From Candidatus Deferrimicrobiaceae bacterium (GTDB lineage Bacteria; Desulfobacterota; Deferrimicrobia; Deferrimicrobiales; Deferrimicrobiaceae), in assembly GCA_036504035.1 (NCBI GenBank), contig DASXVV010000013.1, forward strand, positions 13,302 to 77,301: DNA of 64,000 nt, written 5' to 3'. How positions within the stretch are numbered: the first letter of the stretch is position 1; every line of letters begins with the position of its first letter. A model generated the notes under the pieces. It saw nothing but the letters and a program-made list of their open reading frames with translations. It did no database searches and was not told where the DNA came from. This document shows positions 1,756 to 62,075 of the stretch, one piece after another. A program made the position numbers and the translations under genes.

Positions 1756-1783
1756 ACACACAAAAGACAAAGAGGATAGCATT

Positions 1784-2329
1784 ATGCGTCATGCTGTCGA
1801 CCACCGGAAACTAGGCCGTAACCCGTCCCATCGAAAGGCGCTTCTGAAGAATCTCATGAACGCGCTGGTCTTGTCCGAACGGATCGAGACCACCGTTCCG
1901 AAAGCCAAGGAACTGCGTCGCCTCGCCGATCGCTTGATCACGCTCGGCAAGAAGGACACTCTCCACGCCCGACGCATGGTCTTCACGCTCCTGAGCGACA
2001 AGACCACGACCGACAAGTTGTTTTCCGGTCTTGCCGGGCGCTTCGCTGAACGGGCAGGCGGTTATACCCGTATCATCCGGACCGGTTACCGGGTCGGGGA
2101 CGGCGCCGAGATGGCCATCATCGAATATCTGCCTTCCGAAGAGAAGGAAGCCGCACCTGCGAAGGGCAAGAAGGCGCCCTCGAAGGGCGCCGCGAAGCCG
2201 GCAGTGAAGTCGGCAAAGGCCGCAACCAGGAAGCCGGCTTCCAAAGGGGCCGGCACCGCCAAGGAACCAGGCGCCCAGAAGGTCGCCCGCAAGAAGACCG
2301 TCTCTGCGCCCATCAAACGCGGGAGCTGA
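1784..2329 (+). CDS. rplQ: 50S ribosomal protein L17 with Lys/Ala-rich C-terminal extension
   Basis: 181 aa. MRHAVDHRKLGRNPSHRKALLKNL is the conserved L17 start. The last 60-odd residues are a low-complexity K/A/P/S tail. Confidence 0.95.
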   Translation: MRHAVDHRKLGRNPSHRKALLKNLMNALVLSERIETTVPKAKELRRLADRLITLGKKDTLHARRMVFTLLSDKTTTDKLFSGLAGRFAERAGGYTRIIRTGYRVGDGAEMAIIEYLPSEEKEAAPAKGKKAPSKGAAKPAVKSAKAATRKPASKGAGTAKEPGAQKVARKKTVSAPIKRGS

Positions 2330-2363
2330 ACCGGGATTCGCGAAAGCACAAGAAACTCTCATC

Positions 2364-2393
2364 AAAGGCGGCCCTTCGGGGTCGCCTTTTTTT
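2364..2393 (+). terminator. Rho-independent terminator of the alpha ribosomal operon
   Basis: GGCGGCCC-TTCG-GGGTCGCC hairpin (one G-U pair) followed directly by T7, 35 nt after the rplQ stop. Confidence 0.8.
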
Positions 2394-2415
2394 ATGCCCT
2401 GACGGCGGAAATCGC

Positions 2416-2445
2416 TTGACCGGAAGCGCTTCTCGTCCATATAAT
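2416..2445 (+). promoter_or_regulatory. Sigma70-type promoter for the fur-feoB array
   Basis: TTGACC (2416-2421), 18-nt spacer, TATAAT (2440-2445), about 40 nt upstream of the fur start. Confidence 0.6.
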
Positions 2446-2470
2446 GAAAATGAAATTCATGATCATGTCA
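2440..2470 (+). promoter_or_regulatory. Fur-box-like AT-rich operator overlapping the -10 element
   Basis: TATAATGAAAATGAAATTCATGATCATG. It has GATAAT-like hexamers (cATAAT, GAaAAT), CATgATC versus consensus CATTATC, and the palindromes TGAA-A-TTCA and CATGATCATG. It is the only strongly AT-rich stretch in this region. Confidence 0.55.
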
Positions 2471-2484
2471 GGCGGTGAAGCCCA

Positions 2485-2937
2485 TTGCAAAAGCTCCTGG
2501 AAAAGGTAGAAGAGCGGATACTTGCTTCCGGAGGAAAGCGGAGCAGAAGCCGCTCCGCGGTCATCGAGAGATTTTTTCGCTGCGGGAGGCACGTGTCGGC
2601 AGAGGAGTTGACGCGTCTCGTGAAGGATAGTTTTCCCGCCATAGGGTCCGTGACCGTCTACCGGACACTCAAGCTTCTCCTGAAGCTCGGATACGCCAAC
2701 GAGGTCGGCTTCGGGGAAGGGGTCACGCGATACGAGAGCAACCTGTCTTCGCATCATGACCACTTGGTCTGCCGGGCCTGCGGTGTCGTGACCGAGTTTA
2801 TCGATCCGAGGATCGAGGAATTGCAGACCGAGGTTGCGAAGGCGCATCGATTCAAGCCGACCATGCACCGGCTGGACATCTACGGATATTGCCGAAAATG
2901 CGAGCGCAAGCAGCGGACGGCCGGACCGGTGCTATGA
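2485..2937 (+). CDS. fur: Fur-family metalloregulator
   Basis: 150 aa. Winged-helix region (VTVYRTLKLL), HHDHLVCRACG metal site and a C-terminal CRKC pair. The stop overlaps the feoB ATG (ATGA). Confidence 0.85.
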   Translation: MQKLLEKVEERILASGGKRSRSRSAVIERFFRCGRHVSAEELTRLVKDSFPAIGSVTVYRTLKLLLKLGYANEVGFGEGVTRYESNLSSHHDHLVCRACGVVTEFIDPRIEELQTEVAKAHRFKPTMHRLDIYGYCRKCERKQRTAGPVL

Positions 2938-4907
2938 GCAATACAAGCCTCGCACAGGCCCCCATCGCCGAGAAGGTCATCCTGGTCGGCAATCCGAACG
3001 TGGGGAAGAGCGTCGTTTTCGGTCGTTTGACCGGCAGATATGTGAATGTTTCGAACTATCCTGGTACCACAGTCGAGATTACAAGAGGAGAGATACGCGA
3101 TCGGGGACGAGTCATCGAGATCATCGATACCCCCGGGGTCTACTCCCTCCACCCGATGTCCGAGGATGAACGCGTCACACGCGACATTCTCATGAATGAA
3201 CCCGGGGCGAAGATCCTCCAGGTTTGCGATGCCAAAAATCTGAGACGTTCCCTCATGATCACGGCCCAACTCTCCGAGATGCGCGTGCCCATGGCGGTCG
3301 TGGTCAACATGGTCGACGAAGCGCGGGAGCGGGGTGTCATGCCGCGGATCGACAGCCTGGGAGAGGACGTCGGCGTCCCAGTGCTCGGGATCGTCGCCGT
3401 TAGAGGGAAAGGCACCGACCGGCTGACGGGACTCATAGCGGGGGCCAGCGTCTCACGGGTCCGGATCGATTACGGGGAAATCATCGAGGCCGCCATTTCG
3501 GAGATGGAGCCGTTGATCCCAGAAGATGCGCCGATCGGGCGGCGCGCCCTTTCCCTGATGCTGCTTTCGGGGGACGATTCGCTTGCGGCATGGCTTCGGG
3601 CTTCTGTCACCGAAGACCGGGTCCGCGCGATGAACGAGATCCGGAACCGGCTCGTCGCGCGGGTCGGGGACGACGTGGGCTACATCGTCAACCAGAGGCG
3701 CGCCCAATGGACGGATCGCCTGGTGGAGCGGCTGGGGATCGAGCCGTCCGAACGACCGGCTCACGGTTATGCCCAGCGGCTCGGCCAATGGGCCATGGAT
3801 CCCGTCTACGGCATCCCGGTGCTGCTCGGAGTTCTTCTGGTCGCCTACGGATTCGTGGGGGCCTTCGGCGCCGGCACCTTGGTCGATCTCCTGCAGAACC
3901 GGCTGTTCGGGGAATTGGTGATTCCCGCGGTTACCCGGCTAGCCGATGCGGTCATCCCCTGGGAGATCCTTCGGTCATTCCTGGTCGGCCCATACGGGGT
4001 CATCTCGATGGCGCTATCGTATGCCGTCGCCATCGTGCTGCCGATCGTCGGGACCTTCTTCTTCTTCTTCGGAATCCTCGAGGATTCGGGCTATCTACCC
4101 CGTCTCGCGGTGATGGTCGATCGCTTGTTCAAACGGATCGGCTGCAACGGAAAGGCCGTTCTGCCGCTCGTGCTCGGCCTCGGGTGCGACACCATGGCCA
4201 CGCTGACGGCCCGGATTCTCGAATCCCGGAAAGAGCGGCTGATCGTCACGCTTTTACTCGCGCTCGGCATTCCATGCTCGGCACAGCTCGGGGTGATCCT
4301 AGGGATGCTGGGCGGCGTCGGCCTGCACGCGGCGCTCATCTGGACCGCAATCGTCGTCGGCGTCATCATCCTGGTGGGCTGGCTTGCCGCGAAAGTCATC
4401 CCGGGCCACTCGTCGGATTTCATCATGGAGATTCCGCCGATCCGGATGCCGCAGCTGGGCAACCTGGCAGTCAAGACGATGGCCCGCATCGAGTGGTATT
4501 TGCGGGAGGCGGTCCCGCTATTCGTGGTGGGAACCGTGATCCTTTTCGTTGCGGACAGGACCGGGGCGCTGGCTTTCATCGAACGGGTTTCCCAGCCTCT
4601 GATCGTGCGACTGCTCGATCTGCCTCCCAGCACCGCGGGCGTGTTCCTGATCGGGTTCCTTCGCAGGGACTACGGAGCGGCCGGGCTCTACCGCATGGCG
4701 CAGGCCGGTTTGCTGGACCACGTTCAGGTGCTCGTGAGCCTGGTTACGATGACGCTTTTCATCCCTTGCCTCGCGAATTTCCTGGTCATCATCAAGGAGC
4801 ACGGGATGAAGATCGCCGTAGGCATGGCGGTGTTCATCTTCCCGTTCGCGATCCTGGTCGGGGCCGCACTCAACTATGCGATCCGACATTTGGGAATTGT
4901 CCTGTAG
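2934..4907 (+). CDS. feoB: Ferrous iron transporter FeoB
   Basis: N-terminal G domain (GNPNVGKS, DTPG, NMVD) followed by a long polytopic permease region. I prefer ATG 2934 over the ORF-track start at 2889 because of the ATGA junction with fur. Confidence 0.93.
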   Translation: MSNTSLAQAPIAEKVILVGNPNVGKSVVFGRLTGRYVNVSNYPGTTVEITRGEIRDRGRVIEIIDTPGVYSLHPMSEDERVTRDILMNEPGAKILQVCDAKNLRRSLMITAQLSEMRVPMAVVVNMVDEARERGVMPRIDSLGEDVGVPVLGIVAVRGKGTDRLTGLIAGASVSRVRIDYGEIIEAAISEMEPLIPEDAPIGRRALSLMLLSGDDSLAAWLRASVTEDRVRAMNEIRNRLVARVGDDVGYIVNQRRAQWTDRLVERLGIEPSERPAHGYAQRLGQWAMDPVYGIPVLLGVLLVAYGFVGAFGAGTLVDLLQNRLFGELVIPAVTRLADAVIPWEILRSFLVGPYGVISMALSYAVAIVLPIVGTFFFFFGILEDSGYLPRLAVMVDRLFKRIGCNGKAVLPLVLGLGCDTMATLTARILESRKERLIVTLLLALGIPCSAQLGVILGMLGGVGLHAALIWTAIVVGVIILVGWLAAKVIPGHSSDFIMEIPPIRMPQLGNLAVKTMARIEWYLREAVPLFVVGTVILFVADRTGALAFIERVSQPLIVRLLDLPPSTAGVFLIGFLRRDYGAAGLYRMAQAGLLDHVQVLVSLVTMTLFIPCLANFLVIIKEHGMKIAVGMAVFIFPFAILVGAALNYAIRHLGIVL

Positions 4908-4917
4908 GAGAATCGAC

Positions 4918-5109
4918 GTGGAAAAGTTAAAGTGTCCACTTTGCCAGCATGAGATCGATCCGTCGTCGAGGGCATGCCGGACCGGTTGTCCGATGGGGAA
5001 GGATTGCTCGCTGGTCTGTTGCCCCAATTGCCACTATTCGTTTCCGATTCCTGAATCGCGCGTGATCAATTTCCTGAAGAAAATCTTTTCGAAAGGGAGC
5101 GGTCGATGA
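4918..5109 (+). CDS. Small Cys-rich protein (9 Cys, zinc-ribbon-like), unknown function
   Basis: 63 aa from GTG 4918, with AGGAG 7 nt upstream. Sequence VEKLKCPLCQHE...CRTGCPMGKDCSLVCCPNCH. No signal peptide or TM. Its stop overlaps the next gene's ATG (ATGA). Confidence 0.55.
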   Translation: MEKLKCPLCQHEIDPSSRACRTGCPMGKDCSLVCCPNCHYSFPIPESRVINFLKKIFSKGSGR

Positions 5110-5753
5110 CCGAATACGGACAGGACGAGATCCTTGAACTGATCTGGACGCTGAGGGAAAGCGGCCGACCGACGATGGAGACGCTGCTTCGCCATACGGA
5201 AGAAGAAAGCCCCGAAACGCTCCTCGACGACCTGGCGATGGGAGGATACATCGACGTCTCGCCGGAAGAGATCCGGATGACGAAATCGGGCGAGGAACGG
5301 GCACGCGGGATCATCCGGCGCCACCGGCTGGCCGAGGTCCTGCTCGCCAATCTATTCGACCTCGAGGACTCGCAGATCGAGAACAGTGCCTGCAAGTTCG
5401 AGCACGTCCTTTCCGAGGCCGTGACCGAGAGCGTGTGCACCTTCCTGGGACACCCGCCGGTCTGTCCCCACGGGAAGACGATCCCCCGGGGAGAATGCTG
5501 CGACCGGATCCGGACCGAGATCCTTCCGCTCGTCACGCGCCTGACGGACGCCGGCCTCGGGGATACCGTGCGGATCGTCTTCATCACCCCCAAGTCCCGA
5601 AAAAGGCTCGAAAAGCTCAGCTCCCTCGGCATCGTACCGGGAAGCCGGATCCGGCTCCTTCAGAGAAACCCGTCCTATGTCCTTCAAATCGGGGAAACGA
5701 CCGTGGCGGTCGATCGGGACATCACCGATGAAATATTCGTCAAGCGCGCTTAG
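5106..5753 (+). CDS. DtxR/IdeR-family metal-dependent regulator with C-terminal FeoA/SH3-like domain
   Basis: 215 aa. Contains RRHRLAEVLL and the CPHGKTIP metal-site region typical of DtxR family. The C-terminal GDTVRIV...LGIVPGSRIRLL is FeoA-like. Confidence 0.85.
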   Translation: MTEYGQDEILELIWTLRESGRPTMETLLRHTEEESPETLLDDLAMGGYIDVSPEEIRMTKSGEERARGIIRRHRLAEVLLANLFDLEDSQIENSACKFEHVLSEAVTESVCTFLGHPPVCPHGKTIPRGECCDRIRTEILPLVTRLTDAGLGDTVRIVFITPKSRKRLEKLSSLGIVPGSRIRLLQRNPSYVLQIGETTVAVDRDITDEIFVKRA

Positions 5754-6978
5754 GGCGCTCTGCGCCTCCCTTGCGGCGGTTCTCTTCCTCGAATGGAGCG
5801 GGTTGGCCGTTCCTTGCCGCGCGGAGGGGCGGGAACCGGTGCTCCTGCTGAAATACTCCGCCGCCTCGATTTCCGACGAGGACGCCCGGAAACGCTTTTC
5901 CCCGGTTCTCGCCGAGATCGAGAAAAGGCTCGATGTCCACGCGGCCTTGACAGCCAGGGGACGGGGCGATCTCGGGCCCGTGCTGGCTGAAATCGATGAT
6001 TCCACGCTGAAAGATATTTCGATCCGCGTTTCCGAGGCAAGCCGCAGGATGGATCGTCTCGAGAACAGGGAAGCGGAACGCGCGCTCTCGGGCATAGAGA
6101 AAGAGATGCGGAAGTATCGCTTCGGGGATGCGACCCGACCGATCCTTGCGGATGTTTGCCTGAAGTTGGGCACCTTGTCGATCTGGAACGGGAACAAGGA
6201 AGCGGCGCTCGCAAGTTTCCGGAAAGCCCGGTCCCTTGAGCCAGGCTTCGAACCGGACCCGGCCCTTCACTCCCCCCAGTTCCGCCAGCTTTGGGCCGAG
6301 ACCGGAAAAGGCGCTGCGGCCGAAGCCGAAATCCTGTTCGAATCCGTTCCGCAAGGGGCGCGCGTCTTCATCGATAATGCCGACCAGGGCGTGACGCCAC
6401 GACGCATCCGGGTCCCGGCCTCCCGGCCCGTGCGGGTTCGGCTCGAGCATCCGGGGTACCAGGCCTCCGTCGGGACGCGACAGTGGCTCGTGGGAGACAC
6501 TGAGCGGGTCGAGGTTCTCCTTTCGGGCGATCGCGAATCGAGGCTCGCCGGATTTTTCGAAGCGAACGGTTCCGAAATCCGGGAGGCGGGTCCGATCGTT
6601 TCCGAAATGGCGAAGGAGGCGGGGGTCGAAAAGCTCGCGTTCCTGATGCTCGGCCGTAGAGACGGCGTGCCCGAACTACGAGTTCTTTCAGCCTCGGCAT
6701 CCTCTCCGGAGCCTCGGCTCCTCGGAACGGTCCGCTTCCCGGAGGACGAGAAGGGGTATTCCTCGAATGCCTCCCGCATTACGGCCTTGCTGGCGGAAGC
6801 AGGGTGGCCATCGAAGACCGCCGGGAAGAAAGCCCAGGAAAGGCCATGGTATTATAGTTGGTGGTTGTTGACGGGGGTCGGATTGCTGGCGGCCGGTGCT
6901 GCCGCGGCCTTGAGTGGGGGGGGAGGCGGCGGTGGGGGCGGCGGGACGTCAACCAGCCCGACCAGCGTCAGCTTCTGA
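5728..6978 (+). CDS. Secreted PEGA-domain protein with C-terminal TM helix and poly-Gly tail
   Basis: ATG 5728 gives a signal-peptide-like N-terminus (MKYSSSALRALCASLAAVLFLEW...AEG). PEGA-like segment FESVPQGARVFIDNADQGVTPRRIRV. C-terminus WWLLTGVGLLAAGAAAAL then G10 then TSTSPTSVSF. Confidence 0.7.
   Translation: MKYSSSALRALCASLAAVLFLEWSGLAVPCRAEGREPVLLLKYSAASISDEDARKRFSPVLAEIEKRLDVHAALTARGRGDLGPVLAEIDDSTLKDISIRVSEASRRMDRLENREAERALSGIEKEMRKYRFGDATRPILADVCLKLGTLSIWNGNKEAALASFRKARSLEPGFEPDPALHSPQFRQLWAETGKGAAAEAEILFESVPQGARVFIDNADQGVTPRRIRVPASRPVRVRLEHPGYQASVGTRQWLVGDTERVEVLLSGDRESRLAGFFEANGSEIREAGPIVSEMAKEAGVEKLAFLMLGRRDGVPELRVLSASASSPEPRLLGTVRFPEDEKGYSSNASRITALLAEAGWPSKTAGKKAQERPWYYSWWLLTGVGLLAAGAAAALSGGGGGGGGGGTSTSPTSVSF
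6916..6945 (+). repeat. Poly-glycine coding tract including a G8 homopolymer (6916-6923)
   Basis: ggg ggg gga ggc ggc ggt ggg ggc ggc ggg read directly in the PEGA-protein frame. Confidence 0.9.
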
Positions 6979-7007
6979 TCATCCGCCGAAAGGACGTTCG
7001 AATCCAA

Positions 7008-8366
7008 GTGCATCCCCTCCTACTCGCGTTGCTGATCCTGATCCAGTCTTCCCTGGCCGTCGCTGCCGGTACGCCCGCGGGCGAGACCGTCATCAAGGAT
7101 CTGAAGAACACGAAGATCATCCGTTCCAACGAACAACCGCACCAGATCCTCAACGAAGCGTGCCTCGCGTGCCACCCCAAGGACAAGTTCAATTTCTGGC
7201 TGCTCATCTACAAGGGCAAGCAACCGAGTGTCCTCGTCGAATCACAGGACGGAAAGCCGGGCCTCCAGGCGGACGGCACCGGTTCGAAACAGGCGCCGGT
7301 CAATAAGTACAATTCACATGAAACACTCGCCTGCAGCTTCTGCCATTTCGACAATCCGACCGCAACAACCGCAAAATTCATCATGGAAATCCCGGACCTG
7401 TGCCGGCTTTGCCACCCGGGGATGGAAACTCACAACATGCCCGAAGGAGAGCAGGCGAAGAGCGTCGCCGCGGGAATCGAAGCCGGCAAGCTGCCCGGAC
7501 GCGAAGGGAAGATCCTTTGCACGACCTGCCACAAGCTCCATGATTCGATCTACGGCATGCGTGAGGCCTACGCCAGAATCGTGTATGAGGGGAAGATTCC
7601 GAATCCCCACGGAAATCGCTTCCTCTGTTTCGCCTGTCATCCAGGCAAGATCAAGGAAGGGACCGAAGTTCCGCTTGGCGAGGGGCGCGACATCGAAAAA
7701 CTGTGCAACAGCTGCCACGGGCGCCCGGGCGTGCCCAAGGCCCCCCACGTGGTCGGGGTGACCTCCTCCTCCGAAAGCACATGGCGAATGGATTACCTGG
7801 GCTATCCGCTCGAACAGGGGAAGCTGATCTGCACGACCTGCCATGACGAGGTTTCGCATCGCAAGCCCGATCCGGCGAATCCACGGTTCCTCCGTGGCGG
7901 CCCTTACGCGGAGCAGGACCAGTTCTGCTACCGGTGCCATCTCGAGGACAAGGATCAACTGAGCAATCCCCACCGCCAGATCGATCCTTTCGGCCGGATA
8001 CGCATCGAATCCTGCCGTTTCTGCCACAAGAAGGATCCCGATCTCGCGAAGCCGCGGAATCCCAAAAATCTCGAGATGGTGGGCGAAGAGGTCAGCATCT
8101 GCTCCAATTGCCACCCCGACCGGCCCCATCCCGACAGGGACCACAACGTCGCGATGAGCGGTGAGAAGCTTGCAAGAAAGGTCGCCTACGAACAGAGGCA
8201 CCAGGTCACGTTGCCGCTCGGCGATGGCGACATGGTTCGGTGCAGCACGTGCCACAACCCCCACGCAAAGGGCGTGCTCAAGGGCGAGTCCGGCGTCGGG
8301 GCCGGGTCAAAATGGCGCGTCCCGGATTTCCGGGAAGTTTGTGCTCCCTGTCACGGTCGTTTCTAG
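7008..8366 (+). CDS. Multiheme cytochrome c, 12 CXXCH motifs
   Basis: GTG 7008 gives the signal peptide VHPLLLALLILIQSSLAVAAG. I count 12 CXXCH: CLACH, CSFCH, CRLCH, CTTCH, CFACH, CNSCH, CTTCH, CYRCH, CRFCH, CSNCH, CSTCH, CAPCH. The ORF-track start at 6858 overlaps the upstream gene and encodes R/G-rich junk. Confidence 0.9.
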   Translation: MHPLLLALLILIQSSLAVAAGTPAGETVIKDLKNTKIIRSNEQPHQILNEACLACHPKDKFNFWLLIYKGKQPSVLVESQDGKPGLQADGTGSKQAPVNKYNSHETLACSFCHFDNPTATTAKFIMEIPDLCRLCHPGMETHNMPEGEQAKSVAAGIEAGKLPGREGKILCTTCHKLHDSIYGMREAYARIVYEGKIPNPHGNRFLCFACHPGKIKEGTEVPLGEGRDIEKLCNSCHGRPGVPKAPHVVGVTSSSESTWRMDYLGYPLEQGKLICTTCHDEVSHRKPDPANPRFLRGGPYAEQDQFCYRCHLEDKDQLSNPHRQIDPFGRIRIESCRFCHKKDPDLAKPRNPKNLEMVGEEVSICSNCHPDRPHPDRDHNVAMSGEKLARKVAYEQRHQVTLPLGDGDMVRCSTCHNPHAKGVLKGESGVGAGSKWRVPDFREVCAPCHGRF

Positions 8367-8399
8367 ACGGTCTGGACGTATCATCCCATGGAGGCTTGA

Positions 8400-9068
8400 A
8401 TGATCGAAATATTCAGAGCGGGCGGATTTGTCATGTACCCGATGGTGCTGCTGTCGATTCTCACTGTAGCCATCGGGATCGAACGCGTTATCTACCTTCG
8501 CAGGGCGCGCATGGACGCAGATTCGTTCATGGGGGTGATCAACGGGTTCCTGGAGCGCAATTCGCTCGACGAAGCCAACAAGCATTGCGAGTCGACTTCG
8601 GGGCCAGTAGCCACGATCATCAAGGCGGGACTCAAGAACCAGCGTCGGGGGCGCGCCGAGGTCATCCGGTCGATCGAGGACGCGGGCGCACTGGAAGTCG
8701 CCCAACTCGAAAAGGGCATCCTGATCCTCCAGACCATCTCGAAGATCGCCCCGCTGATCGGCCTGTTCGGCACGGTCACCGGCATGATCGCCTCCTTCCG
8801 GGCGATCGGGGCCACCGCCGGCGGCGGGAATCCCGCCAGCGTCGCGACCGGCATCTCCGAAGCGTTGATCGCCACCGCTTCAGGCCTCGTCGTCGCCATC
8901 CCGGCCTACTTCCTGTCGTTCTATTTCCTCGACCGGGTCAACAGGTTCATGCTCGACATGCAGAAGAGCTCCATCCGCTTCCTGGATGCATTGGGCGACC
9001 TCGAGGAAAACGTCGCGGAGCGCTCGCAGCGCTTCGATACGATCGGGGGGGACTACCTTGAAGTTTAA
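8400..9068 (+). CDS. exbB: MotA/TolQ/ExbB-family proton channel
   Basis: 222 aa, three TM segments, conserved IAPLIGLFGTVTGMI and ALIATASGLVVAIPA helices. GGAGG RBS upstream. Confidence 0.9.
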   Translation: MIEIFRAGGFVMYPMVLLSILTVAIGIERVIYLRRARMDADSFMGVINGFLERNSLDEANKHCESTSGPVATIIKAGLKNQRRGRAEVIRSIEDAGALEVAQLEKGILILQTISKIAPLIGLFGTVTGMIASFRAIGATAGGGNPASVATGISEALIATASGLVVAIPAYFLSFYFLDRVNRFMLDMQKSSIRFLDALGDLEENVAERSQRFDTIGGDYLEV

Positions 9069-9471
9069 GAGGACGGTGCCCAACGACGACGAAGGGATCC
9101 CGATCGTCAACCTGGTCGACGTCCTGTTCCTCCTGATCGTCTTCTTCATGGTGTCCACCGTCCTGAGCTACGACAAGGGGATGGGCGTGAAGCTGCCCGA
9201 GACCGCCGCCGGCGCCGGGCGAATCTCGAACAAGGGGGTTAGCGTGCTTATCGACCGCGATGGGCGCGTCTTCGTCGATGGCGCCAAGGTGACGATCGAT
9301 CAGGTAGGCGCCAAGGTCAAGGAGCGCCAGAAGATCGGGGGGACGAACGTGATCCTCAAGTCCGATCGCGACACCCGCTACCAGTCGATTGCGTCGGTGA
9401 TGGATCGACTCCTCGAAGTCGGTATCAGCGACCTTTCCCTTCCCGTGATCGAGAAGGGGGGAGGTCAGTAA
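9058..9471 (+). CDS. exbD: ExbD/TolR-family protein
   Basis: TTG 9058 overlaps the exbB stop. Single TM IVNLVDVLFLLIVFFMV carries the conserved Asp, followed by a periplasmic domain. The 8986 track start lies inside exbB. Confidence 0.88.
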   Translation: MKFKRTVPNDDEGIPIVNLVDVLFLLIVFFMVSTVLSYDKGMGVKLPETAAGAGRISNKGVSVLIDRDGRVFVDGAKVTIDQVGAKVKERQKIGGTNVILKSDRDTRYQSIASVMDRLLEVGISDLSLPVIEKGGGQ

Positions 9472-9475
9472 TATT

Positions 9476-10423
9476 TTGCCTGGCCGTCGGTTGCGCTCCA
9501 TCCTGGAACCCGTCTTGTACGTCGGGATTGCAGCGCTGCTCCATTCAGCGCTGTTCCTGATCCCGGGCGTGGCGCCCGCCAAGAAAGAGGCAGTGACGAC
9601 GCAGCGGGGAGTGCGCGTGCGCGCTTTCGTCGAGAGGCCTGTGCTTCCTCCGCCTCCCGCCGTCGTTCCGGCGTCGGCGTCGGTTCCAGCCAGGTTTGCG
9701 CCGCCACCCATCGCCACGGCAAACCTGCCTTATTCCATTCCCGGGGCCTCTAAGGCGGGGGTCGTGAACCCCGCCGGCGGGGGAGGGAATCCCGGGGGAG
9801 GCGCCCCGGCGACCGGCGTCACGACTTCCGGACCCGGAGGGCCGGCCCCTGCACCGTCGGTCGCAAGGCCGGGCCCGTCGGAACCATCGAAATTCGCCAA
9901 TTTCCTGGCGGGTCTGCAATCCTCCGGGATTCGAGGCGCGGCCCGGGATGCAGCCGAAAAGAACCAGCGCGCCTACAAGGGGACCGGCAGCGGCACGGGA
10001 AACGAGGGCTGGGGCAGCGGATCAGGGGGGCGGGGCGGGGGGACCGGCGGCGGATCGGGGACGGGGTCGGGGACCGGGAGCGGAAGCGGGAGTGGGAGAG
10101 GCAGCGCCGGCTACATGGACCCTCGGGTCAAGATGGTCGTGACGAGCTACCCGTCGACAGACATCGAGCGGCACTACACCCAGGTTCCATACCCGAACCT
10201 CAAGATCAAGCAGAGCAAGTTTACGGCGGGATGGATGAACGTCTACTTGAAGCTGAGGACAAACTCCGAGGGGGCAATCGTATCGACCGAAGTCCTCAGG
10301 CCCGAAACAGAAGGTGTCCTGGAAAAGCAGTTCCTAGACCAGGTCAAGCGCGAAGTCTCCAAGTGGGACTTCGACCCGAAAGAGGCGGAAATCCACGTCG
10401 ACGTGAGGTTCTATGTTGAGTAG
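9476..10423 (+). CDS. TonB-like energy transducer (TolA-like alternative)
   Basis: 315 aa, TTG start. N-terminal TM, Pro-rich then Gly/Ser/Thr-rich linker. The C-terminal domain has the YP...G.V...KWDFDP pattern of TonB C-terminal domains. Confidence 0.75.
   Translation: MPGRRLRSILEPVLYVGIAALLHSALFLIPGVAPAKKEAVTTQRGVRVRAFVERPVLPPPPAVVPASASVPARFAPPPIATANLPYSIPGASKAGVVNPAGGGGNPGGGAPATGVTTSGPGGPAPAPSVARPGPSEPSKFANFLAGLQSSGIRGAARDAAEKNQRAYKGTGSGTGNEGWGSGSGGRGGGTGGGSGTGSGTGSGSGSGRGSAGYMDPRVKMVVTSYPSTDIERHYTQVPYPNLKIKQSKFTAGWMNVYLKLRTNSEGAIVSTEVLRPETEGVLEKQFLDQVKREVSKWDFDPKEAEIHVDVRFYVE
9980..10111 (+). repeat. Gly/Ser/Thr low-complexity tandem coding repeat in the TonB-like linker
   Basis: Translation GTGSGTGNEGWGSGSGGRGGGTGGGSGTGSGTGSGSGSGRGSAG. 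The nucleotides are reiterated GGN-AGC/ACC units. Confidence 0.85.
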
Positions 10424-11177
10424 GGGAATGGCTTTGGTGCCTATCCTGGCGTTGACGGCCTTGTTGTCTTCCGCCCATGCGGCAGACCAGGAAGGTTGCC
10501 TGTTCTGCCATCGGCTGGAACTTGCGCGCACAGGAGCGAGGGTTTCCGATCTTCGGGTCACCGAACCCCCCGGCAAGTTCCACGACGGGGTTTACTGCTC
10601 CGACTGCCACCCTGACGCGAAAATGGCCCCGCACACCGTCACGCCGGGCGCCGCCCGCTGCATCGACGAGTGTCATGCCAACGGCGCGGGGAACGTCCCT
10701 GAGAGCCACCGTCGTGCCGCATTCGGGGGAACGACCGAATCGCACAGGCACGCGGCGATGCCCTCGTCTCCGTGCCTGTTCTGTCACAGGGCAGATGACC
10801 CCCCTTCGGCCGCGTTTCCCGCCTCCGCCCGTTGCAAGGGGTGTCACGCGGGAGAAGCGCTGTCGGTTGCCGAAGGCGTTCACGGGGGCCTCGCGACCAA
10901 CCGCCCCGGCGGCGCCTGCCCCGCTTGCCACGTCCCGCATCCATCGGGGATGGCCGGCAGTCGCACGGACAATGTTGCGACCTGCCGGGGAGCCGGCTGC
11001 CATGAACAAGTGACCGATCGGATGAAGGCGCTGGGAGGCCACGGGAAGGGGGCGCCCGGCGAACGCCCGAAACGCATCGGGGCGCTCCTGTTGTTCTTGG
11101 TTGCCTGCCTGGCCGGCCTTATCCCCGGTCGATGGCTTTGCGGGAACGGGCCGCTGCCCGAGGGGGATGAACGATGA
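10413..11177 (+). CDS. Multiheme cytochrome c (5 CXXCH + CX3CH + CX4CH) with C-terminal TM anchor
   Basis: Signal peptide MLSRGMALVPILALTALLSSAHA. Motifs CLFCH, CSDCH, CIDECH, CLFCH, CKGCH, CPACH, CRGAGCH. C-terminal helix IGALLLFLVACLAGLI. The start overlaps the tonB-like stop. Confidence 0.88.
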   Translation: MLSRGMALVPILALTALLSSAHAADQEGCLFCHRLELARTGARVSDLRVTEPPGKFHDGVYCSDCHPDAKMAPHTVTPGAARCIDECHANGAGNVPESHRRAAFGGTTESHRHAAMPSSPCLFCHRADDPPSAAFPASARCKGCHAGEALSVAEGVHGGLATNRPGGACPACHVPHPSGMAGSRTDNVATCRGAGCHEQVTDRMKALGGHGKGAPGERPKRIGALLLFLVACLAGLIPGRWLCGNGPLPEGDER

Positions 11178-12100
11178 ACTGGATCAACCCGCCCCAAACC
11201 GTCAAAAGGTATTCGCTGCAGCAAATCCTTCAGCATGTCGCGGCGTTGCTGCTGGCGCTGCTCCTGATCCTTTCCGCACTGGCCCCGGGGTTCTGGCGCG
11301 GAATCCACGGTACCATCGGGCTGGCCTCGACCGTTTTGTTCCTCGCCCACCTCTTTTCGTTGCTCGTGATCGGAGTCCGCCACGACGTGGCGATCGACCA
11401 TATCGCCTTTCTTCCGACCGGGACGCGCGAGACTACACCCGAGGCAAGGGCCGCTGCGGGGAAATTCACGCTTCCCGAAAAGCAAGATTACTGCCTGATC
11501 CTGTGCTGGAGCTTCCTCGCCATCACGAGCGGGATTGTACTCCACTGGCCCGGGCGTTTCGGCGTCCCGGGGCCGACGGAATACGCGTGGCTCCGAATAA
11601 CCCACACAGCCATGGGAGCCGGCTGGGCTCTTCACATTATCGGATGCCATGTTCCATTCCGGTTCATCCACGCCCGGGCCGGATTCCGTTGGTCGATTTT
11701 CACGGGGAAAGTGCCGCTGGAATCGGCCGAATCCCGCGGAGGATGGGTCGCTTCTCTCGTGGAAACAGGGATTCTCGTCCCGGTCCCGACGGTGCAGCAT
11801 GGGGCGGCTGAACGCGAAACCGTCCAGGTCAGGGAAATGCTCGACGAAGGAAACCGTCGGACCCGGGAAGGGCGTTATGAGGAGGCGGCGTCCATCTTCG
11901 AGGAAGCCTTGCGCCTTTACCCGGAATATTCGCAGGCGCGTTTCAACCTCGCCGTGTCCCGGATCCGGCAGGGGCGACCGGACCTGGCTTCCGAACAGCT
12001 AAGGGTCTTTCTTGAATCCGACCCGTTCAACCCGATGGCCGGGAAGGCACGGGAACTCCTCGACGGCATCTCCAGGCCGGATGAAGGAGGCACGCCATGA
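11174..12100 (+). CDS. Four-TM b-type cytochrome (FdnI/HydC-like) fused to a C-terminal TPR domain
   Basis: 308 aa. His residues lie in TM1 (LQHVAA), TM2 (FLAHLF) and TM4 (ITHTAMGAGWALHIIGCH), as in diheme b subunits. The C-terminal EGRYEEAASIFEEALRLYPEYSQARFNLAV... is TPR-like. ATGA junctions on both sides. Confidence 0.7.
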   Translation: MNWINPPQTVKRYSLQQILQHVAALLLALLLILSALAPGFWRGIHGTIGLASTVLFLAHLFSLLVIGVRHDVAIDHIAFLPTGTRETTPEARAAAGKFTLPEKQDYCLILCWSFLAITSGIVLHWPGRFGVPGPTEYAWLRITHTAMGAGWALHIIGCHVPFRFIHARAGFRWSIFTGKVPLESAESRGGWVASLVETGILVPVPTVQHGAAERETVQVREMLDEGNRRTREGRYEEAASIFEEALRLYPEYSQARFNLAVSRIRQGRPDLASEQLRVFLESDPFNPMAGKARELLDGISRPDEGGTP

Positions 12101-12630
12101 GACAGGTGGCCGACCTTCTTGCGGTGATCCTCGCCGTCGCCATCTTCGTCCTGATAGCCCGGGGTGCCGTCCCGGGGATTTCCTCGGCCCCGCTCGTTCC
12201 TGCGACCGACGACGGCTCGTATTACCATCCCGGGAAAAACCGCCGCACCCTCACGGACCAGAAGGCCTGCATCGCCGAAGGCTGCCACGGCGATGCCCCC
12301 CACAAGCGGGATAAGGCGCTGGCCCCGTTCCGGAACCTCCACGCGAACTACGTCGCCTGCCCGGTCTGCCATGCTCCCGACGGTTCGACGCGGTTTACCG
12401 GCAGCCGGGACGGGAACGGACGCGTGCACCTGCGATACACGGGGAGCGTGCCTGCGACCGGTCCCAAGGGCCACCCGCCTCTCGGCAACCCGGGGGGGTG
12501 CAGGCGCTGCCACTCCGAGCCGGGGATGCGCTCCCTGAAGGAGCACGGTCTCTCCACGCTACCGCCCGGATATGCCGATCCGATCGCTTTGCGCATGCAC
12601 GAAGGAGGCGCCAGGCAGTGGAATCCTTGA
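12097..12630 (+). CDS. N-terminally anchored small cytochrome c (CX4CH + 2 CXXCH)
   Basis: 177 aa. TM ADLLAVILAVAIFVLIA. Motifs CIAEGCH, CPVCH, CRRCH. Confidence 0.8.
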   Translation: MRQVADLLAVILAVAIFVLIARGAVPGISSAPLVPATDDGSYYHPGKNRRTLTDQKACIAEGCHGDAPHKRDKALAPFRNLHANYVACPVCHAPDGSTRFTGSRDGNGRVHLRYTGSVPATGPKGHPPLGNPGGCRRCHSEPGMRSLKEHGLSTLPPGYADPIALRMHEGGARQWNP

Positions 12631-13520
12631 CGCTTCGCCGCATCGGCGCTGCGCTCATCGGCGGGCTATTGCTCCTAATCCATGTGGGGTCGGCTCCGGC
12701 CGCGGAGGCCATCCGGAAGCCGCACGCGCTGTCGCTGCGCAAAGCCGGTGGCAGGACGCTTTCCTTTCCATCAGACGTCGCGATCGATCGAAGGGGCGTC
12801 GTATTCCTTCTCGACAGCGGAAACCGGTCGATCGCGATCTACTCCCCCAAAGGCGAATTCATACGCGAGATTCAGGGGCGCGGGATCTGGAAAGACCCGT
12901 TGGGCGTAGGCGTCACTTCGGATGGCAACATCCTGATTGCCGACGGGGAAGGAGGCAGGGTGTTCGAGATCGACCTCGCCGGGCGTCTGAAAAAAGAGTA
13001 TGTCGCTGGGAAAGGCGCGCGCCTGACGGGCGTCTGCGCCTACGGCGATTCGATCTACGTCGTCGATAACCGGAATCACAGGATCGTCATGTTCAAGCGA
13101 AAAGGGGGCGGACAGGAAAGCTGGGGGAGGAAGGGGGATCACGCCGGGGAATTCGACACGCCTTTCCGGATTGCGGCCGATGCGAGCGGGCGCATCTTCG
13201 TGACCGATGTCATGAATGCCAGGATCCAGTGGTTCTCGGCCTTCGGGCAGTACCTCGGAACCCTGAAGCGATTCGGCGCCGGGGCAGGCAGGATCTTCCG
13301 GCCGACCGGGCTGGCAATCGATAATCGCGGCCGGATCTGGGTCGGGGACAGCTATACCGGTCTCGTACAAGCCTTCGACGAAAAAGGCAATTTCGCACAG
13401 GCAGTCTCTGCCGATTCCAGGCCATCGATCTTCGGAGACCCGTCCGGTCTTGCCGATGGGGCCGAAGGGATCTGGATCGCGGACCAGCGTGACGGCGTGC
13501 TCGCATTGTCCAGGCAATAA
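12618..13520 (+). CDS. Secreted NHL-repeat beta-propeller protein
   Basis: GTG 12618 lies 10 nt after GAAGGAGG. Signal peptide ...LLLLIHVGSAPAAEA. Six repeats of the P.G(V/I)A.D..G.I.V.D..N.RI type. Confidence 0.85.
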   Translation: MESLTLRRIGAALIGGLLLLIHVGSAPAAEAIRKPHALSLRKAGGRTLSFPSDVAIDRRGVVFLLDSGNRSIAIYSPKGEFIREIQGRGIWKDPLGVGVTSDGNILIADGEGGRVFEIDLAGRLKKEYVAGKGARLTGVCAYGDSIYVVDNRNHRIVMFKRKGGGQESWGRKGDHAGEFDTPFRIAADASGRIFVTDVMNARIQWFSAFGQYLGTLKRFGAGAGRIFRPTGLAIDNRGRIWVGDSYTGLVQAFDEKGNFAQAVSADSRPSIFGDPSGLADGAEGIWIADQRDGVLALSRQ

Positions 13521-13544
13521 TCACCCATGGAAGAAGAGGTGTCG

Positions 13545-13751
13545 ATGGAACCGAGAAAGTGGGAATACGGGCAGATCTTCGTCAAGCGGCCCGAGATCTT
13601 CGGCGGGCTTCCCAAGACGGGGCTTGAGATGGACAAGCTGAACCGGGCCGGTTCGGAGGGATGGGAGATGGTCGGAACGGTTCCCTTCACCCTCCCCACA
13701 GGCGAGGTCCGCGGGGCTTTCATCCTGTTTAAACGGGAAATCGCAGGGTAG
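13545..13751 (+). CDS. DUF4177-like small protein
   Basis: MEPRKWEYGQIFV...LNRAGSEGWEMVGTVP...AFILFKRE pattern. ATG 13545 has a better RBS than ATG 13527. Confidence 0.65.
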   Translation: MEPRKWEYGQIFVKRPEIFGGLPKTGLEMDKLNRAGSEGWEMVGTVPFTLPTGEVRGAFILFKREIAG

Positions 13752-13760
13752 CCGGACGCC

Positions 13761-16580
13761 GTGCCTGCCGCAAGGACCATCGCTATCCTGCTTCTGATGG
13801 GGGTGTTGGCGACCATGGCGCCAGGCGCCCGGGCCGCAGATGTTTACGACCAGGAAAAGTGCTCGCTTTGCCACATCCGGCAAAGCGTCTTTTTCGACGG
13901 CCGGTTCCTCTCCCCCGGACACGCGAAGGAGTTCGGCGAGGAACGGATCTGCTCCAGCTGCCACAACGGGGTCGTCTCCGACCAGCGGGGCATTCTCTGG
14001 CGGGGAGCCCAGCACCCCGCCCCGGGCGGAGGTGAGCAGAGGCGCTGCTCCCGCTGCCATTCCCCTCACACGAAGGGAGGCGGGTGGGGCGTTCTCGCAG
14101 GGACCTCCGCCTCGATCCGTCGCAATTCAGAAGCCCAGTGCGTCGGGTGCCACCAGGCGTATTCCACCCGGCAGGGCGCCATCCACATGAATCGCTTTCC
14201 CGAGGGTGGTTGCAAGGAATGCCACCGTGCCCATGGGGGAGTGGGGAAATCGCTGCTTCGGGAGGGCAGGGAAACGCTCTGCCTGAGATGCCACCCAACG
14301 AAGGATGCCGGCGGCAAGGGGGGACATCCGACCGCCTTGGCCGGGGAGGAATCCGGGCGAGGGCGCCCGTTTCCGGAATGCATATCCTGTCATCCCGTCC
14401 ACCCCCGCCCCGGCGCCGTCGTGAAGGGGGGAGCGTCCTTGTGCGCTACCTGTCATCCTGCCCTGAAGGAGGGGGATGGCAAGCCGAATCATCCGGGTGT
14501 CGGGGATTGCCTATCGTGCCACGTGTTCCATTCCCGGACGGGGGAAGGCGGGCGCGCGTTCCGCGGACGCGAGATCCGTCCCGAGATCCTTTGCGCGCGA
14601 TGTCACGCATCCTACAAGAGCGACACCCCGAAACAGGCGCGCGAGAAGGGGATGCACGTCACCAAGGTCGGCGAACGACAAGACCTCTGCTTCCGCTGCC
14701 ACACGATCCACAAGGCTGCGGCCGGCACGGCGCTTTTGCTCTCGGCCAAGGGTTATTCCTGCTTCGAGTGCCACGATCAGCAGAACAGCATCAGCGAAAC
14801 CCGCGGGATCGTGTTGTCGCACCCCGTCTTCGAGCGGGTCGAGAAGAACCGGTTCGAATCCGCCTTCGGAAAGGGAAAACGCCTTGTCCTGGGGCCCAAG
14901 GGGGAGATCGTCTGCCGGACCTGCCATTCCGTCCACAAGGCGGCGCCCGGAACGGCGTTGATCGTCGGGGGCGTGGGGGAGAGCGCCATCTGTTTCTCCT
15001 GCCATGAGGGAATGCGGGGGAAGGCGCACGTCGATCCCAAGATCGCCAAGGCCGGTGCGGGAAAGGATTTCGGCTGCGACATCTGCCACCCGGTGCACGG
15101 AAGGAACACGCTCGTGGATCCCGGCAAGGGGGAATCCCCGGATGATCCATGGAAAAAACTCTGCTCCGATTGCCACCCTCGCGTGTCGATGCACCTCGAA
15201 GGTGATGCCGACCGGTCCACGCGCCGCCCTGCCGACCTGCCGGCATTCGATACTCGCGGCCGTGCCGTCCGGATCGGGACGATATCGTGTCCGACCTGCC
15301 ATCAGCCGCACGGGATGCTCGACAGCCCCCGTCGGCTCAGGAAGGACTATCGTCCATCCGGCTTCTTGTGCACATCCTGCCACCCTGACAGGGAAAAACT
15401 CGCGCTGACGCCCCACGACCTGCGAGGGATTGCAGGGGAAGGGTTCTGCGAACCCTGCCATGTCCCGCACGGCGGGACATCGCCCTGGATGCTCGGGATC
15501 ACGCCGGATCCGGCAGCCAGCGGGCCGGGAGAGGCGATATGCAGATCGTGCCACAGGGAAAAAGGGTTGGCTTCGCCGGTGGCCAAGGCGGGGCACCCCA
15601 TGAACATCATGGTTGGGCGACCGATTCCGACGGTCTATCCTCTTTCGAATGTCAAAGACGGGGGCGTGGCCGGGATGCTCGTCTGCTCCTCCTGCCATGA
15701 CGTCCACGGAACGGGATTCGTCCCGGTCGGGACCGGGACAGGGAAGCTTCTCCGGATTCCCGCCGACCGACCCGAGGAGACATTGACGCGGAACGGCGAA
15801 TGCGTCCCCTGCCATGTGAAGATCTCCTCGCATGCGAAAGCCGATTGCATCTCGTGTCATCCTCCGCACCAGGACACGAAACCGGATTCGGGATGCGCCG
15901 GATGCCACGAAAGGAAGGAGGCCGGGACGGCCGCCCGGCACATCGGCAAGGGAACGGGATGTGTCGCCTGCCACCGGGTACACCCAAAGGAAGGGGGAGG
16001 CGAAAAGAAGCCGGAGCGTGTCTGCATCGGATGTCACCCGAAGACCGAACGGATCGTCGGGACCCCGCATGGGGATATCGAAGGGGGGCCGTGCGGAAGC
16101 TGTCATCCCGCCCACAAGGACCTGCCCCCGCCCGAGGTCCGGCGAAAGCCTTCCGATGAACTGTTCCTTCCGAACCTGCCTTGCCTTCGCTGTCACCAGG
16201 AGGGAGGGATTGCGCCGTTGCCGCCTCTGTCCGAGCATCCCAGCCGCAAGAGGAAGGTTCCGACCAATTACGGGGGTTCCGTCATCCTCGAGACGTTAAT
16301 CCCGATGGTCGGTCGTTTCCTGGAAGCGGGAAAACCAATGTTTCCGCTCTACGACGAAGGTCTAACGCCTGGGAACAACGGACGGATCGCTTGTCTGACC
16401 TGCCACGATCCCCACGCCGGCATCGGTATGTCCCCGGACGGCAAGGACCGGGCCGCGGGGGCTTATCTGCGCGACCCGTCCGACAATTTCATCGCTGAAA
16501 TCTGCGAGGGATGCCACCGCGGGGAAGCCTCGGAGCATGTCCGAAAATTCCACACGCTCCCGCGCAAGGAGATCGATTAA
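13761..16580 (+). CDS. Giant multiheme cytochrome c, 30 CXXCH motifs
   Basis: 939 aa. GTG start gives signal peptide MPAARTIAILLLMGVLATMAPGARA. I count 30 CXXCH, many as CXXCHxxH (for example CISCHPVH, CRTCHSVH, CPTCHQPH, CLTCHDPH). Confidence 0.92.
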   Translation: MPAARTIAILLLMGVLATMAPGARAADVYDQEKCSLCHIRQSVFFDGRFLSPGHAKEFGEERICSSCHNGVVSDQRGILWRGAQHPAPGGGEQRRCSRCHSPHTKGGGWGVLAGTSASIRRNSEAQCVGCHQAYSTRQGAIHMNRFPEGGCKECHRAHGGVGKSLLREGRETLCLRCHPTKDAGGKGGHPTALAGEESGRGRPFPECISCHPVHPRPGAVVKGGASLCATCHPALKEGDGKPNHPGVGDCLSCHVFHSRTGEGGRAFRGREIRPEILCARCHASYKSDTPKQAREKGMHVTKVGERQDLCFRCHTIHKAAAGTALLLSAKGYSCFECHDQQNSISETRGIVLSHPVFERVEKNRFESAFGKGKRLVLGPKGEIVCRTCHSVHKAAPGTALIVGGVGESAICFSCHEGMRGKAHVDPKIAKAGAGKDFGCDICHPVHGRNTLVDPGKGESPDDPWKKLCSDCHPRVSMHLEGDADRSTRRPADLPAFDTRGRAVRIGTISCPTCHQPHGMLDSPRRLRKDYRPSGFLCTSCHPDREKLALTPHDLRGIAGEGFCEPCHVPHGGTSPWMLGITPDPAASGPGEAICRSCHREKGLASPVAKAGHPMNIMVGRPIPTVYPLSNVKDGGVAGMLVCSSCHDVHGTGFVPVGTGTGKLLRIPADRPEETLTRNGECVPCHVKISSHAKADCISCHPPHQDTKPDSGCAGCHERKEAGTAARHIGKGTGCVACHRVHPKEGGGEKKPERVCIGCHPKTERIVGTPHGDIEGGPCGSCHPAHKDLPPPEVRRKPSDELFLPNLPCLRCHQEGGIAPLPPLSEHPSRKRKVPTNYGGSVILETLIPMVGRFLEAGKPMFPLYDEGLTPGNNGRIACLTCHDPHAGIGMSPDGKDRAAGAYLRDPSDNFIAEICEGCHRGEASEHVRKFHTLPRKEID

Positions 16581-16590
16581 ACTGGCACCC

Positions 16591-16947
16591 ATGGGAAACA
16601 ACGAGATCAGGCCCCGATCCGGGATGCGCCGCTATTTCCGGATCGCGCTTTATATTGTCGGTATCGCCGTCGTCGTCATTACGCTGGTACGGGACCAGGG
16701 CGTCATCGGCACATGGCGGCTTTCCCGGACAGAGAAGCAGCTCCTGGCCGAAAACGAAAAGCTGCGACAGGAAACGGCGCGCCTGCAGAACGAGGTCCAC
16801 AAACTGCGGACCAGCTGGGACATCATCGAAAAGCGGGCACGCGAGATGGGGCTCATCTATCCCGGTGAAGTCGTGATCGACACGCGCGGCGACAACAATG
16901 CGCTCTCCGGCCAACCCAGGGGCAAGGGAGGGCCGGGCCGTCCCTAG
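16591..16947 (+). CDS. ftsB: Septum formation initiator FtsB/DivIC-like protein
   Basis: Single TM (IALYIVGIAVVVITLV), then the coiled coil EKQLLAENEKLRQETARLQNEVHKLR and a REMGLIYPGE motif. The start is uncertain (16537, 16591 or 16624). Confidence 0.7.
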   Translation: MGNNEIRPRSGMRRYFRIALYIVGIAVVVITLVRDQGVIGTWRLSRTEKQLLAENEKLRQETARLQNEVHKLRTSWDIIEKRAREMGLIYPGEVVIDTRGDNNALSGQPRGKGGPGRP

Positions 16948-19078: not shown

Positions 19079-19131
19079 ACTACCCACTTTATTAAATAAA
19101 TTTGTATTCGGGGCCTGAATTGGACGTCCGC

Positions 19132-25378: not shown

Positions 25379-25419
25379 CCGATCGAAAACCAGCACGCAT
25401 CCCGTCAAGGAGCCGCCCC

Positions 25420-38141: not shown

Positions 38142-38891
<750 letters not shown>

Positions 38892-60236: not shown

Positions 60237-60243
60237 ACCCGCC

Positions 60244-62073: not shown

Positions 62074-62075
62074 AG

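Follow-up and report, generated by a model that had tools for sequence, protein, structure and literature searches.

A stretch of 64,000 nucleotides from the genome of Candidatus Deferrimicrobiaceae bacterium (GenBank assembly GCA_036504035.1, contig DASXVV010000013.1, positions 13,302 to 77,301 of the forward strand; hereafter the window, with its first letter as position 1) contains a 14-kb array of 15 open reading frames (ORFs) on one strand, in which genes for Fe(II) uptake are followed by ten genes encoding multihaem cytochromes, a cytochrome b and a TonB-like motor. The Candidatus Deferrimicrobiaceae lineage belongs to the phylum MBNT15/Deferrimicrobiota, and the named homologues of the array's cytochrome b come from Candidatus Deferrimicrobiaceae or from metagenome-assembled genomes labelled 'Deltaproteobacteria'. 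Organisms of the MBNT15 phylum are predicted iron reducers (PMC9386147). A first, sequence-only reading of the window had taken the Feo, Fur and DtxR genes and the cytochromes for one system; by analyzing the domains and regulatory signals of the array and the distribution of its genes among other genomes, we argue here that it consists of two separable units, an iron-uptake cassette (unit A, 2416-6978) and a cytochrome module (unit B, 7008-16580).

The 15 ORFs (2485-16580, all on the + strand, from ORF calls annotated with Pfam and NCBIfam) carry 52 haem motifs distributed over four cytochromes (12, 7, 3 and 30), and the largest gap among them, between the gene for the 12-haem cytochrome and exbB, measures 33 nucleotides; on all of these counts the sequence-only reading was accurate. 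Its four ATGA overlaps were likewise confirmed base by base, but its total of eight overlapping junctions was not: feoB and the gene behind it also overlap if the ATG at 4876 is used, which makes nine. Upstream of the array lie rpoA and rplQ, closed by an intrinsic terminator (2364-2389, + strand; an 11-bp stem with seven GC pairs, then a T run) that forms its 5' boundary. Both of the clean terminators noticed earlier were recovered, this one and a hairpin followed by nine T residues at about 38271-38305. No recognizable terminator was found inside the array, including the junction between cassette and cytochrome module, and none was found at its 3' end after 16580. There the packed run of genes on this strand is prolonged by ftsB, a GGDEF gene, argS, a SPOR gene and trpE, at spacings of -50 to +53 nucleotides. 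Since this packed run goes on at similar spacing, the tight spacing is not specific to the array; it marks the region as a whole and, as evidence for a functional unit, is weak. The content of guanine plus cytosine (GC) is even across array and flanks, and a recent horizontal acquisition of the array was rejected for this reason.

The array opens with a sigma-70-type promoter, TTGACC-18-TATAAT (2416-2445, + strand), an 11/12 match and the best one in positions 1500-19500. It is followed by a Fur box, GAAAATGAAATTCATGATC (2446-2464, + strand), which agrees with the 19-bp consensus at 15 of 19 positions and is accompanied by an overlapping second site from 2440. The box is the single top match in the 64 kb, the next being the overlapping site (13/19) and all others scoring 12 or less, and a counterpart of 13-16/19 stands at the same place before fur in the seven orthologous loci that reach that far (L003-L007, L011 and L012); the Fur-box promoter predicted in the sequence-only reading is thereby borne out. 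A search of the array for other Fur boxes found none, and the internal sigma-70 matches are weak, leaving one strong promoter, at the 5' end. Neither a strict sigma-54 -24/-12 element in the array nor an IdeR/DtxR box above background in the window was found.

Behind this promoter lie fur (2485-2937; 150 amino acids, PF01475 E=1e-30) and feoB (2934-4907; 657 amino acids), whose product is an Fe(II) transporter with a complete Pfam set (N-terminal G-domain, Gate domains and FeoB_C) and a TIGR00437 score of 394 bits (cutoff 316). A cysteine-rich, zinc-ribbon-like protein of 77 amino acids (4876-5109), with weak zinc-ribbon matches only, is kept between feoB and dtxR at 67-83% identity in orthologous loci. 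It precedes a DtxR-family protein with a divergent N-terminus (5106-5753; PF02742 E=6e-24, and a C-terminal FeoA/SH3 domain, PF04023 E=1e-13), in which the equivalents of Cys102, Glu105 and His106 are visible. Residues 1-75 of this protein gave no match to the helix-turn-helix model PF01325 even at E<=5, and NCBIfam alignments start at residue 39 or 55. Of the two metalloregulators named in the sequence-only reading, therefore, Fur with its predicted operator is solid, but the role of the DtxR-like protein as a DNA-binding regulator is uncertain, because no DtxR helix-turn-helix domain is detectable. The protein carries the sole FeoA domain in the locus, feoB being without a separate FeoA, and could be a partner of the FeoA type for FeoB instead of, or besides, a repressor. 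The gene order is that of Geobacter sulfurreducens GSU1379-1382, which we take to be a Fur-autoregulated set of fur, feoB, a small ORF and a DtxR-family gene behind a Fur box; it differs in that the DtxR-like protein of the window has no recognizable helix-turn-helix and the cassette is fused to a cytochrome module. Between the two units lies a PEGA-domain protein (5728-6978; signal peptide, C-terminal transmembrane helix, PF08308 E=5e-5), which is restricted to Deferrimicrobiota-type loci; it was considered as a member of the cytochrome module and rejected, as no homologue occurs in loci that carry the module alone.

The module itself begins with a secreted 12-haem cytochrome c (7008-8366; 12 CxxCH motifs, signal peptide), all of whose motifs are invariant in 18 homologues. 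Then come an ExbB/TolQ-family proton channel (8400-9068; PF01618 E=3e-31), an ExbD/TolR protein (9058-9471; PF02472 E=2e-24) and a TonB-like protein of 315 amino acids (9476-10423). Three membrane-associated proteins follow: a 7-haem cytochrome c (10413-11177; five CxxCH, one Cx3CH and one Cx4CH, with a signal peptide and a C-terminal membrane anchor), a dihaem cytochrome b with a C-terminal TPR fusion (11174-12100) and a 3-haem cytochrome c (12097-12630; three motifs, N-terminal membrane anchor). The last three genes encode a secreted NHL-repeat beta-propeller (12618-13520; PF01436 E=2e-25), a DUF4177 protein of 74 amino acids without signal peptide (13527-13751; PF13783 E=7e-5, just under the cutoff) and a secreted 30-haem cytochrome c of 939 amino acids (13761-16580; 30 CxxCH). 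Homologues of this giant cytochrome have 27-30 motifs in 935-1082 amino acids, and the haem numbers 12, 7 (5+1+1), 3 and 27-30 are nearly constant across lineages at 25-37% protein identity. The best-conserved member is the DUF4177 protein, with 56-67% identity across lineages, where the giant cytochrome has about 27%; it measures 68-81 amino acids in the loci compared (window 13527-13751, L016 16931-17140 and L018 17398-17610), and a possible partner for it is the TPR domain of the cytochrome b. PDB sequence searches with the 12- and 30-haem proteins gave matches at the level of haem motifs only, and the AlphaFold model of the 12-haem cytochrome was poor (predicted local distance difference test, pLDDT, 54; predicted TM-score 0.27) and unfit for a fold search.

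In the sequence-only reading the labels 'TonB' and 'cyt b' had been given to proteins that, in the window, lack significant Pfam support, but further tests support both. For the cytochrome b, whose N-terminal half is hydrophobic, PF01292 matches the window protein at only E=0.05 but is recorded in several homologues, and a profile of 25 cytochrome b sequences aligns over the full length of Escherichia coli FdnI (1kqf_C, E=1.1e-8). Its residues H21, H59, H144 and H159, placed as in FdnI (one in the first transmembrane helix, one in the second and two in the fourth), are invariant, and so is H45. From its sequence we classify the protein as an FdnI-type dihaem cytochrome b, and from FdnI topology and the positive-inside rule its TPR domain should face the cytoplasm. 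Together with its neighbours, the anchored 7- and 3-haem subunits, it looks like an inner-membrane quinol:cytochrome c oxidoreductase, in keeping with the quinol-oxidase-like b/c module proposed earlier.

The adjacent MotA_ExbB and ExbD/TolR genes, the latter with an Asp in its transmembrane helix (IPIVNLVDVLF), form an ExbB/ExbD stator pair; NCBIfam models for TolQ and for ExbB both match the channel protein, both under their equivalog cutoffs, which leaves the subfamily undecided. The gene directly after exbB-exbD, in all loci, encodes the TonB-like protein: an N-terminal transmembrane helix, a Pro/Gly-rich linker and a C-terminal domain of about 95 residues. Its H23, in the N-terminal helix, is invariant in eight orthologues, as in the TonB/TolA signature. 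A sequence-level identification as TonB, attempted in Pfam (E<=1) and with a profile against PDB, failed, and only the fold search gave a useful lead, the sole signal at the level of sequence being the NCBIfam model LIC_10042 TonB-like (E=0.006). An AlphaFold (AF2) model of the last 111 residues reached a pLDDT of 77, and its top 10 PDB matches in Foldseek are TonB C-terminal domains, with probabilities of 0.93-0.99. Searched against 1.84 billion representative proteins, a profile of the C-terminal domain returned 59 clusters only, of which 54 reach E<=1e-10. Judged by its architecture and modelled fold, the protein is TonB-like and represents a private, divergent family tied to the module. 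The earlier claim of an ExbB-ExbD-TonB motor without a receptor thus holds in the form of a TonB-like motor beside which no receptor gene lies. In L018 (12612-13988) the TonB-like protein is larger (458 amino acids), with an insert of about 170 residues that comprises two beta-rich repeats; the insert is PEGA-like or carboxypeptidase-regulatory-like by eye and has no Pfam match. At the mature N-terminus of the 12-haem cytochrome (window 7008-7100), the sequence 'GETVIKDL' resembles a TonB box; the motif 'ETVIK' is conserved in Deferrimicrobiota-type proteins and deleted in Deferrisoma-type ones, and that this N-terminus might serve as a TonB-box-like strand is a weak idea.

The window encodes LptD, and the organism therefore has an outer membrane. 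The module's cytochromes all have Sec signal peptides or inner-membrane anchors, no lipobox was found in any secreted protein of the array, and similarity to the NCBIfam models for MtrC, DmsE and OmcA is limited to haem motifs, far under the cutoffs.

To follow these genes beyond the window, a profile of the cytochrome b-TPR protein was run against one genome per GTDB species and JGI metagenomes, followed by tblastn with all window proteins; distant loci were reached via the 12-haem cytochrome and read from their gene calls, together with L013 and L014. At least 14 loci of Deferrimicrobiota type keep the full order, from rpoA-rplQ through fur to the 30-haem cytochrome and on to ftsB-GGDEF-argS, and they do so down to about 45-50% identity in the cytochrome b, with equally short gaps at the junctions. 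Because fusion and short gaps are kept in so many loci, co-transcription of cassette and module is plausible within this lineage. The housekeeping flanks are equally syntenic, however, and adjacency therefore cannot separate functional linkage from lineage-wide colinearity.

Adjacency of cassette and module is restricted to Deferrimicrobiota (MBNT15)-type loci. Ten loci from other lineages carry the module only (L013, L014, L016 from Deferrisoma palaeochoriense, L017-L020 and L053-L055), and none of the ten has fur, feoB, dtxR or PEGA genes within about 5-10 kb upstream. Their order is that of the window: the 12-haem cytochrome, exbB, exbD, the TonB-like gene, the 7-haem cytochrome, cytochrome b-TPR, the 3-haem cytochrome, NHL, DUF4177 and the giant cytochrome, except that L013 is without the last two and L055 without a separately called small ORF. 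With D. palaeochoriense (phylum Thermodesulfobacteriota, class Deferrisomatia) the module is found in at least two phyla. Its neighbours outside Deferrimicrobiota vary by lineage and include a pyridine-nucleotide disulphide oxidoreductase with a metallophosphoesterase, HEAT-repeat and thioredoxin-like proteins, and a two-component system. Because the module stands alone in ten loci from other lineages, the array is made up of two separable units, and the claim that Feo, Fur, DtxR and the cytochromes constitute one system is not upheld. A cytochrome block standing elsewhere without feo and fur is an outcome that the sequence-only reading had itself named as speaking against a single unit.

Several of these loci have features of their own. 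L013 (459-12480) is a low-GC variant in which cytochrome b and TPR are separate ORFs, and upstream of it a divergent pair looks, from sequence, like an NtrC-type response regulator and a histidine kinase. In L020 (1-9819) and L053 (1-9830), a thioredoxin-like (AhpC-TSA/Redoxin) gene lies directly upstream of the 12-haem cytochrome, with more NHL and multihaem cytochrome genes before it, which suggests larger cytochrome islands around the module. A HEAT-repeat (PBS-lyase-like) protein of 348-429 amino acids adjoins the module in several lineages outside Deferrimicrobiota (L016 19955-21244, L019 19505-20788, L054 19667-20941 and L018 8440-9486). In the window itself, the + strand run behind the array (16581-21400) comprises an ftsB-like gene (16624-16947), a GAF-GGDEF gene (16898-19078), argS and a SPOR gene, joined by overlaps or by gaps of at most 53 nucleotides, and then the trp genes. 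Among the latter, the ORFs for tryptophan synthase beta (PALP; 24163-26775) and alpha (27471-29453) have N-terminal extensions of about 400-490 amino acids, which probably reflect ORFs called too long in GC-rich DNA and not real fusions. A second locus related to cyclic di-GMP, besides the GGDEF gene at 16898, consists of a GAF-GGDEF protein followed by a response regulator with DUF4388 (60226-63629).

We hypothesize that the array is a lineage-specific tandem of an ordinary Fur-controlled iron cassette and an autonomous ten-gene electron-conduit module with a TonB-like motor, a reading that we hold to be somewhat probable. In unit A, the sigma-70 promoter overlapped by the Fur box would drive fur, feoB, the zinc-ribbon gene and the DtxR/FeoA gene, with the PEGA envelope protein next in this lineage. 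In unit B, the FdnI-type cytochrome b flanked by anchored 7- and 3-haem c subunits would act as an inner-membrane quinol:cytochrome c oxidoreductase, passing quinol electrons to the soluble 12-haem cytochrome and to the 30-haem cytochrome, which is in principle long enough to span the periplasm, while the NHL propeller may serve as a scaffold. The final acceptor would be Fe(III) or another extracellular or periplasmic acceptor, and the ExbB-ExbD-TonB-like motor, driven by the proton gradient, would connect the system with a partner in the outer membrane whose gene lies elsewhere. As the module lies directly behind the cassette with no recognizable terminator, iron-responsive read-through into it is possible in Deferrimicrobiota, where it would be an add-on and not a defining trait of the module; a functional link to Feo, and with it reductive iron assimilation, is likewise a possibility specific to this lineage.

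A bolder version makes the motor an integral part of the conduit, with the proton-motive force positioning, gating or pulling a multihaem cytochrome against or through the outer membrane. For this role the 12-haem protein, always encoded immediately upstream of the motor genes, is the candidate client. Known systems of extracellular electron transfer cross the outer membrane passively, to our knowledge, by porin-cytochrome complexes or filaments, and we know of no described precedent for an energized step; we regard this version as doubtful.

Several results weigh against the tandem with a conduit module and its TonB-like motor. The 315-residue protein had no match to TonB_C (PF03544) even at E<=1 in Pfam, a profile of it found low-complexity matches only among PDB sequences, and the Foldseek agreement with TonB is moderate (E 0.07-0.17, TM-score 0.42-0.58). 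On the outer-membrane side, no porin and no lipoprotein cytochrome was found in the 15 ORFs of the array, the ten large window ORFs scanned and the related loci, and no TonB-dependent receptor (Plug/TonB_dep_Rec) in the array, the same ten window ORFs and more than 20 related loci. Sequence alone does not tell which way the electrons flow. Finally, tight packing conserved over at least 14 loci would be expected of a true single operon as well.

That alternative would make the whole array one Fur-repressed operon for reductive iron assimilation, in which, when iron is limiting, the cytochrome chain reduces extracellular or periplasmic Fe(III) to Fe(II) that FeoB then takes up. It would account for the single strong Fur-box promoter at the 5' end with neither a recognizable terminator nor a consensus promoter behind it, for gaps of at most 33 nucleotides and overlaps that persist down to about 45-50% identity, for a TonB-type motor, classically an uptake device, and for a FeoB whose only FeoA domain in the locus sits on the DtxR-like protein. 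Against it stand the ten loci of other lineages in which the module does without fur, feoB and dtxR, and the regulatory signals there: upstream of the 12-haem cytochrome no Fur box was found in the high-GC loci L016-L018, and the matches in AT-rich L013 are at chance level, L019, L020 and L053-L055 lying outside the scan. Unrelated housekeeping neighbours in Deferrimicrobiota are, moreover, just as syntenic and as tightly spaced, and an apparatus of 52 haems would be costly for scavenging under iron starvation. We consider a single operon of this kind unlikely.

A further alternative retains the autonomous module and places its reaction in the periplasm: the motor would energize an unlinked outer-membrane importer of a chelated or colloidal oxidant (for example, Fe(III) complexes), which the 12- and 30-haem cytochromes would reduce there. 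No electron conduit through the outer membrane would then be necessary, which suits cytochromes that are Sec-secreted or anchored in the inner membrane, with no lipobox and no porin, and the TonB-like fold and ExbBD pair do point to energized outer-membrane transport. But no gene for a TonB-dependent receptor stands beside the module in more than 20 loci, and the C-terminal domain, in its own family of 59 clusters, is so far from canonical TonB that its partner would be non-canonical too; periplasmic reduction by import thus seems to us quite unlikely. Most improbable is the reverse direction, in which the module would take electrons from Fe(II), minerals or partner cells to the quinone pool: multihaem chains and FdnI-type cytochromes b are, as a matter of general knowledge, reversible in principle, but the sole cultured carrier identified, Deferrisoma, is an Fe(III) reducer, and no iron-oxidation protein (Cyc2, MtoA) was named in the Pfam, NCBIfam or neighbourhood results. 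One point in its favour is that MBNT15 genomes encode aerobic respiration too (PMC9386147).

Parts of the module have counterparts in known systems. Like the Geobacter Cbc complexes (CbcBA, CbcL), it sets an FdnI/PhsC-type dihaem cytochrome b beside a membrane-anchored multihaem cytochrome c, an arrangement by which the Cbc complexes supply periplasmic haem chains with electrons from quinol. The likeness to CbcBA, in which CbcA is a 7-haem subunit anchored at its C-terminus, is one of architecture. Unlike the Cbc complexes, the b subunit of the module has a C-terminal TPR domain (predicted to be cytoplasmic) and a second, 3-haem anchored subunit beside it, and it belongs to a fixed set of ten genes with a TonB-like motor. 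The module shares with porin-cytochrome conduits (MtrCAB, Geobacter Pcc/Ext) the multihaem chains presumed to bring electrons to extracellular Fe(III), but the array encodes neither a beta-barrel porin nor a lipoprotein cytochrome. With the canonical ExbB-ExbD-TonB and TolQ-TolR-TolA motors it has in common the ExbB/ExbD domains, the ExbD Asp, the transmembrane His, the Pro-rich spacer and the TonB-like fold; it departs from them in a C-terminal domain undetectable by TonB_C and confined to its private family, in having no linked receptor and in having cytochromes as operon partners.

NHL proteins are a repeated find in cytochrome clusters linked to extracellular electron transfer (PMC9769857, PMC10376724). 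In such clusters, proposed for this function in Desulfovibrio ferrophilus (DFE_0448-0451 and DFE_0461-0465), Dethiobacter and Candidatus Dechloromonas occultata ('occ'), genes for large, secreted multihaem cytochromes have NHL genes interleaved among them, and porin genes are absent, as from the module (PMC9769857, PMC10376724, 10.1101/695007). They are set apart by their descriptions, which include neither ExbB/ExbD/TonB nor a cytochrome b-TPR fusion nor DUF4177. The cytochrome clusters described in the MBNT15 genome paper are different ones, and TonB, ExbB, NHL and FeoB go unmentioned there (PMC9386147). An anammox literature match was considered as a precedent and ruled out, as it concerns ordinary siderophore uptake. 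No published cluster of ExbB/ExbD/TonB with multihaem cytochromes like the module was found in the open-access literature searched, which agrees with the sequence-only reading, where no described system with this gene combination was known.

The module is thus distinct in its fixed order of ten genes and its 12, 7, 3 and 30 haems, common to Deferrimicrobiota and Deferrisomatia, always with its own divergent TonB-like motor and never with a porin. Deferrisoma is a cultured Fe(III) reducer, and because D. palaeochoriense is a cultured carrier, the module is directly testable. If the motor takes part, proton-motive force would be linked to metal respiration. If the module is an electron conduit, its fusion to the Fur/Feo genes in the window would be a lineage-specific tie of an iron-reducing apparatus to iron status. 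For the widespread, uncultured MBNT15/Deferrimicrobiota, the module is a concrete candidate for the machinery of iron reduction, which published genome analyses had left open.

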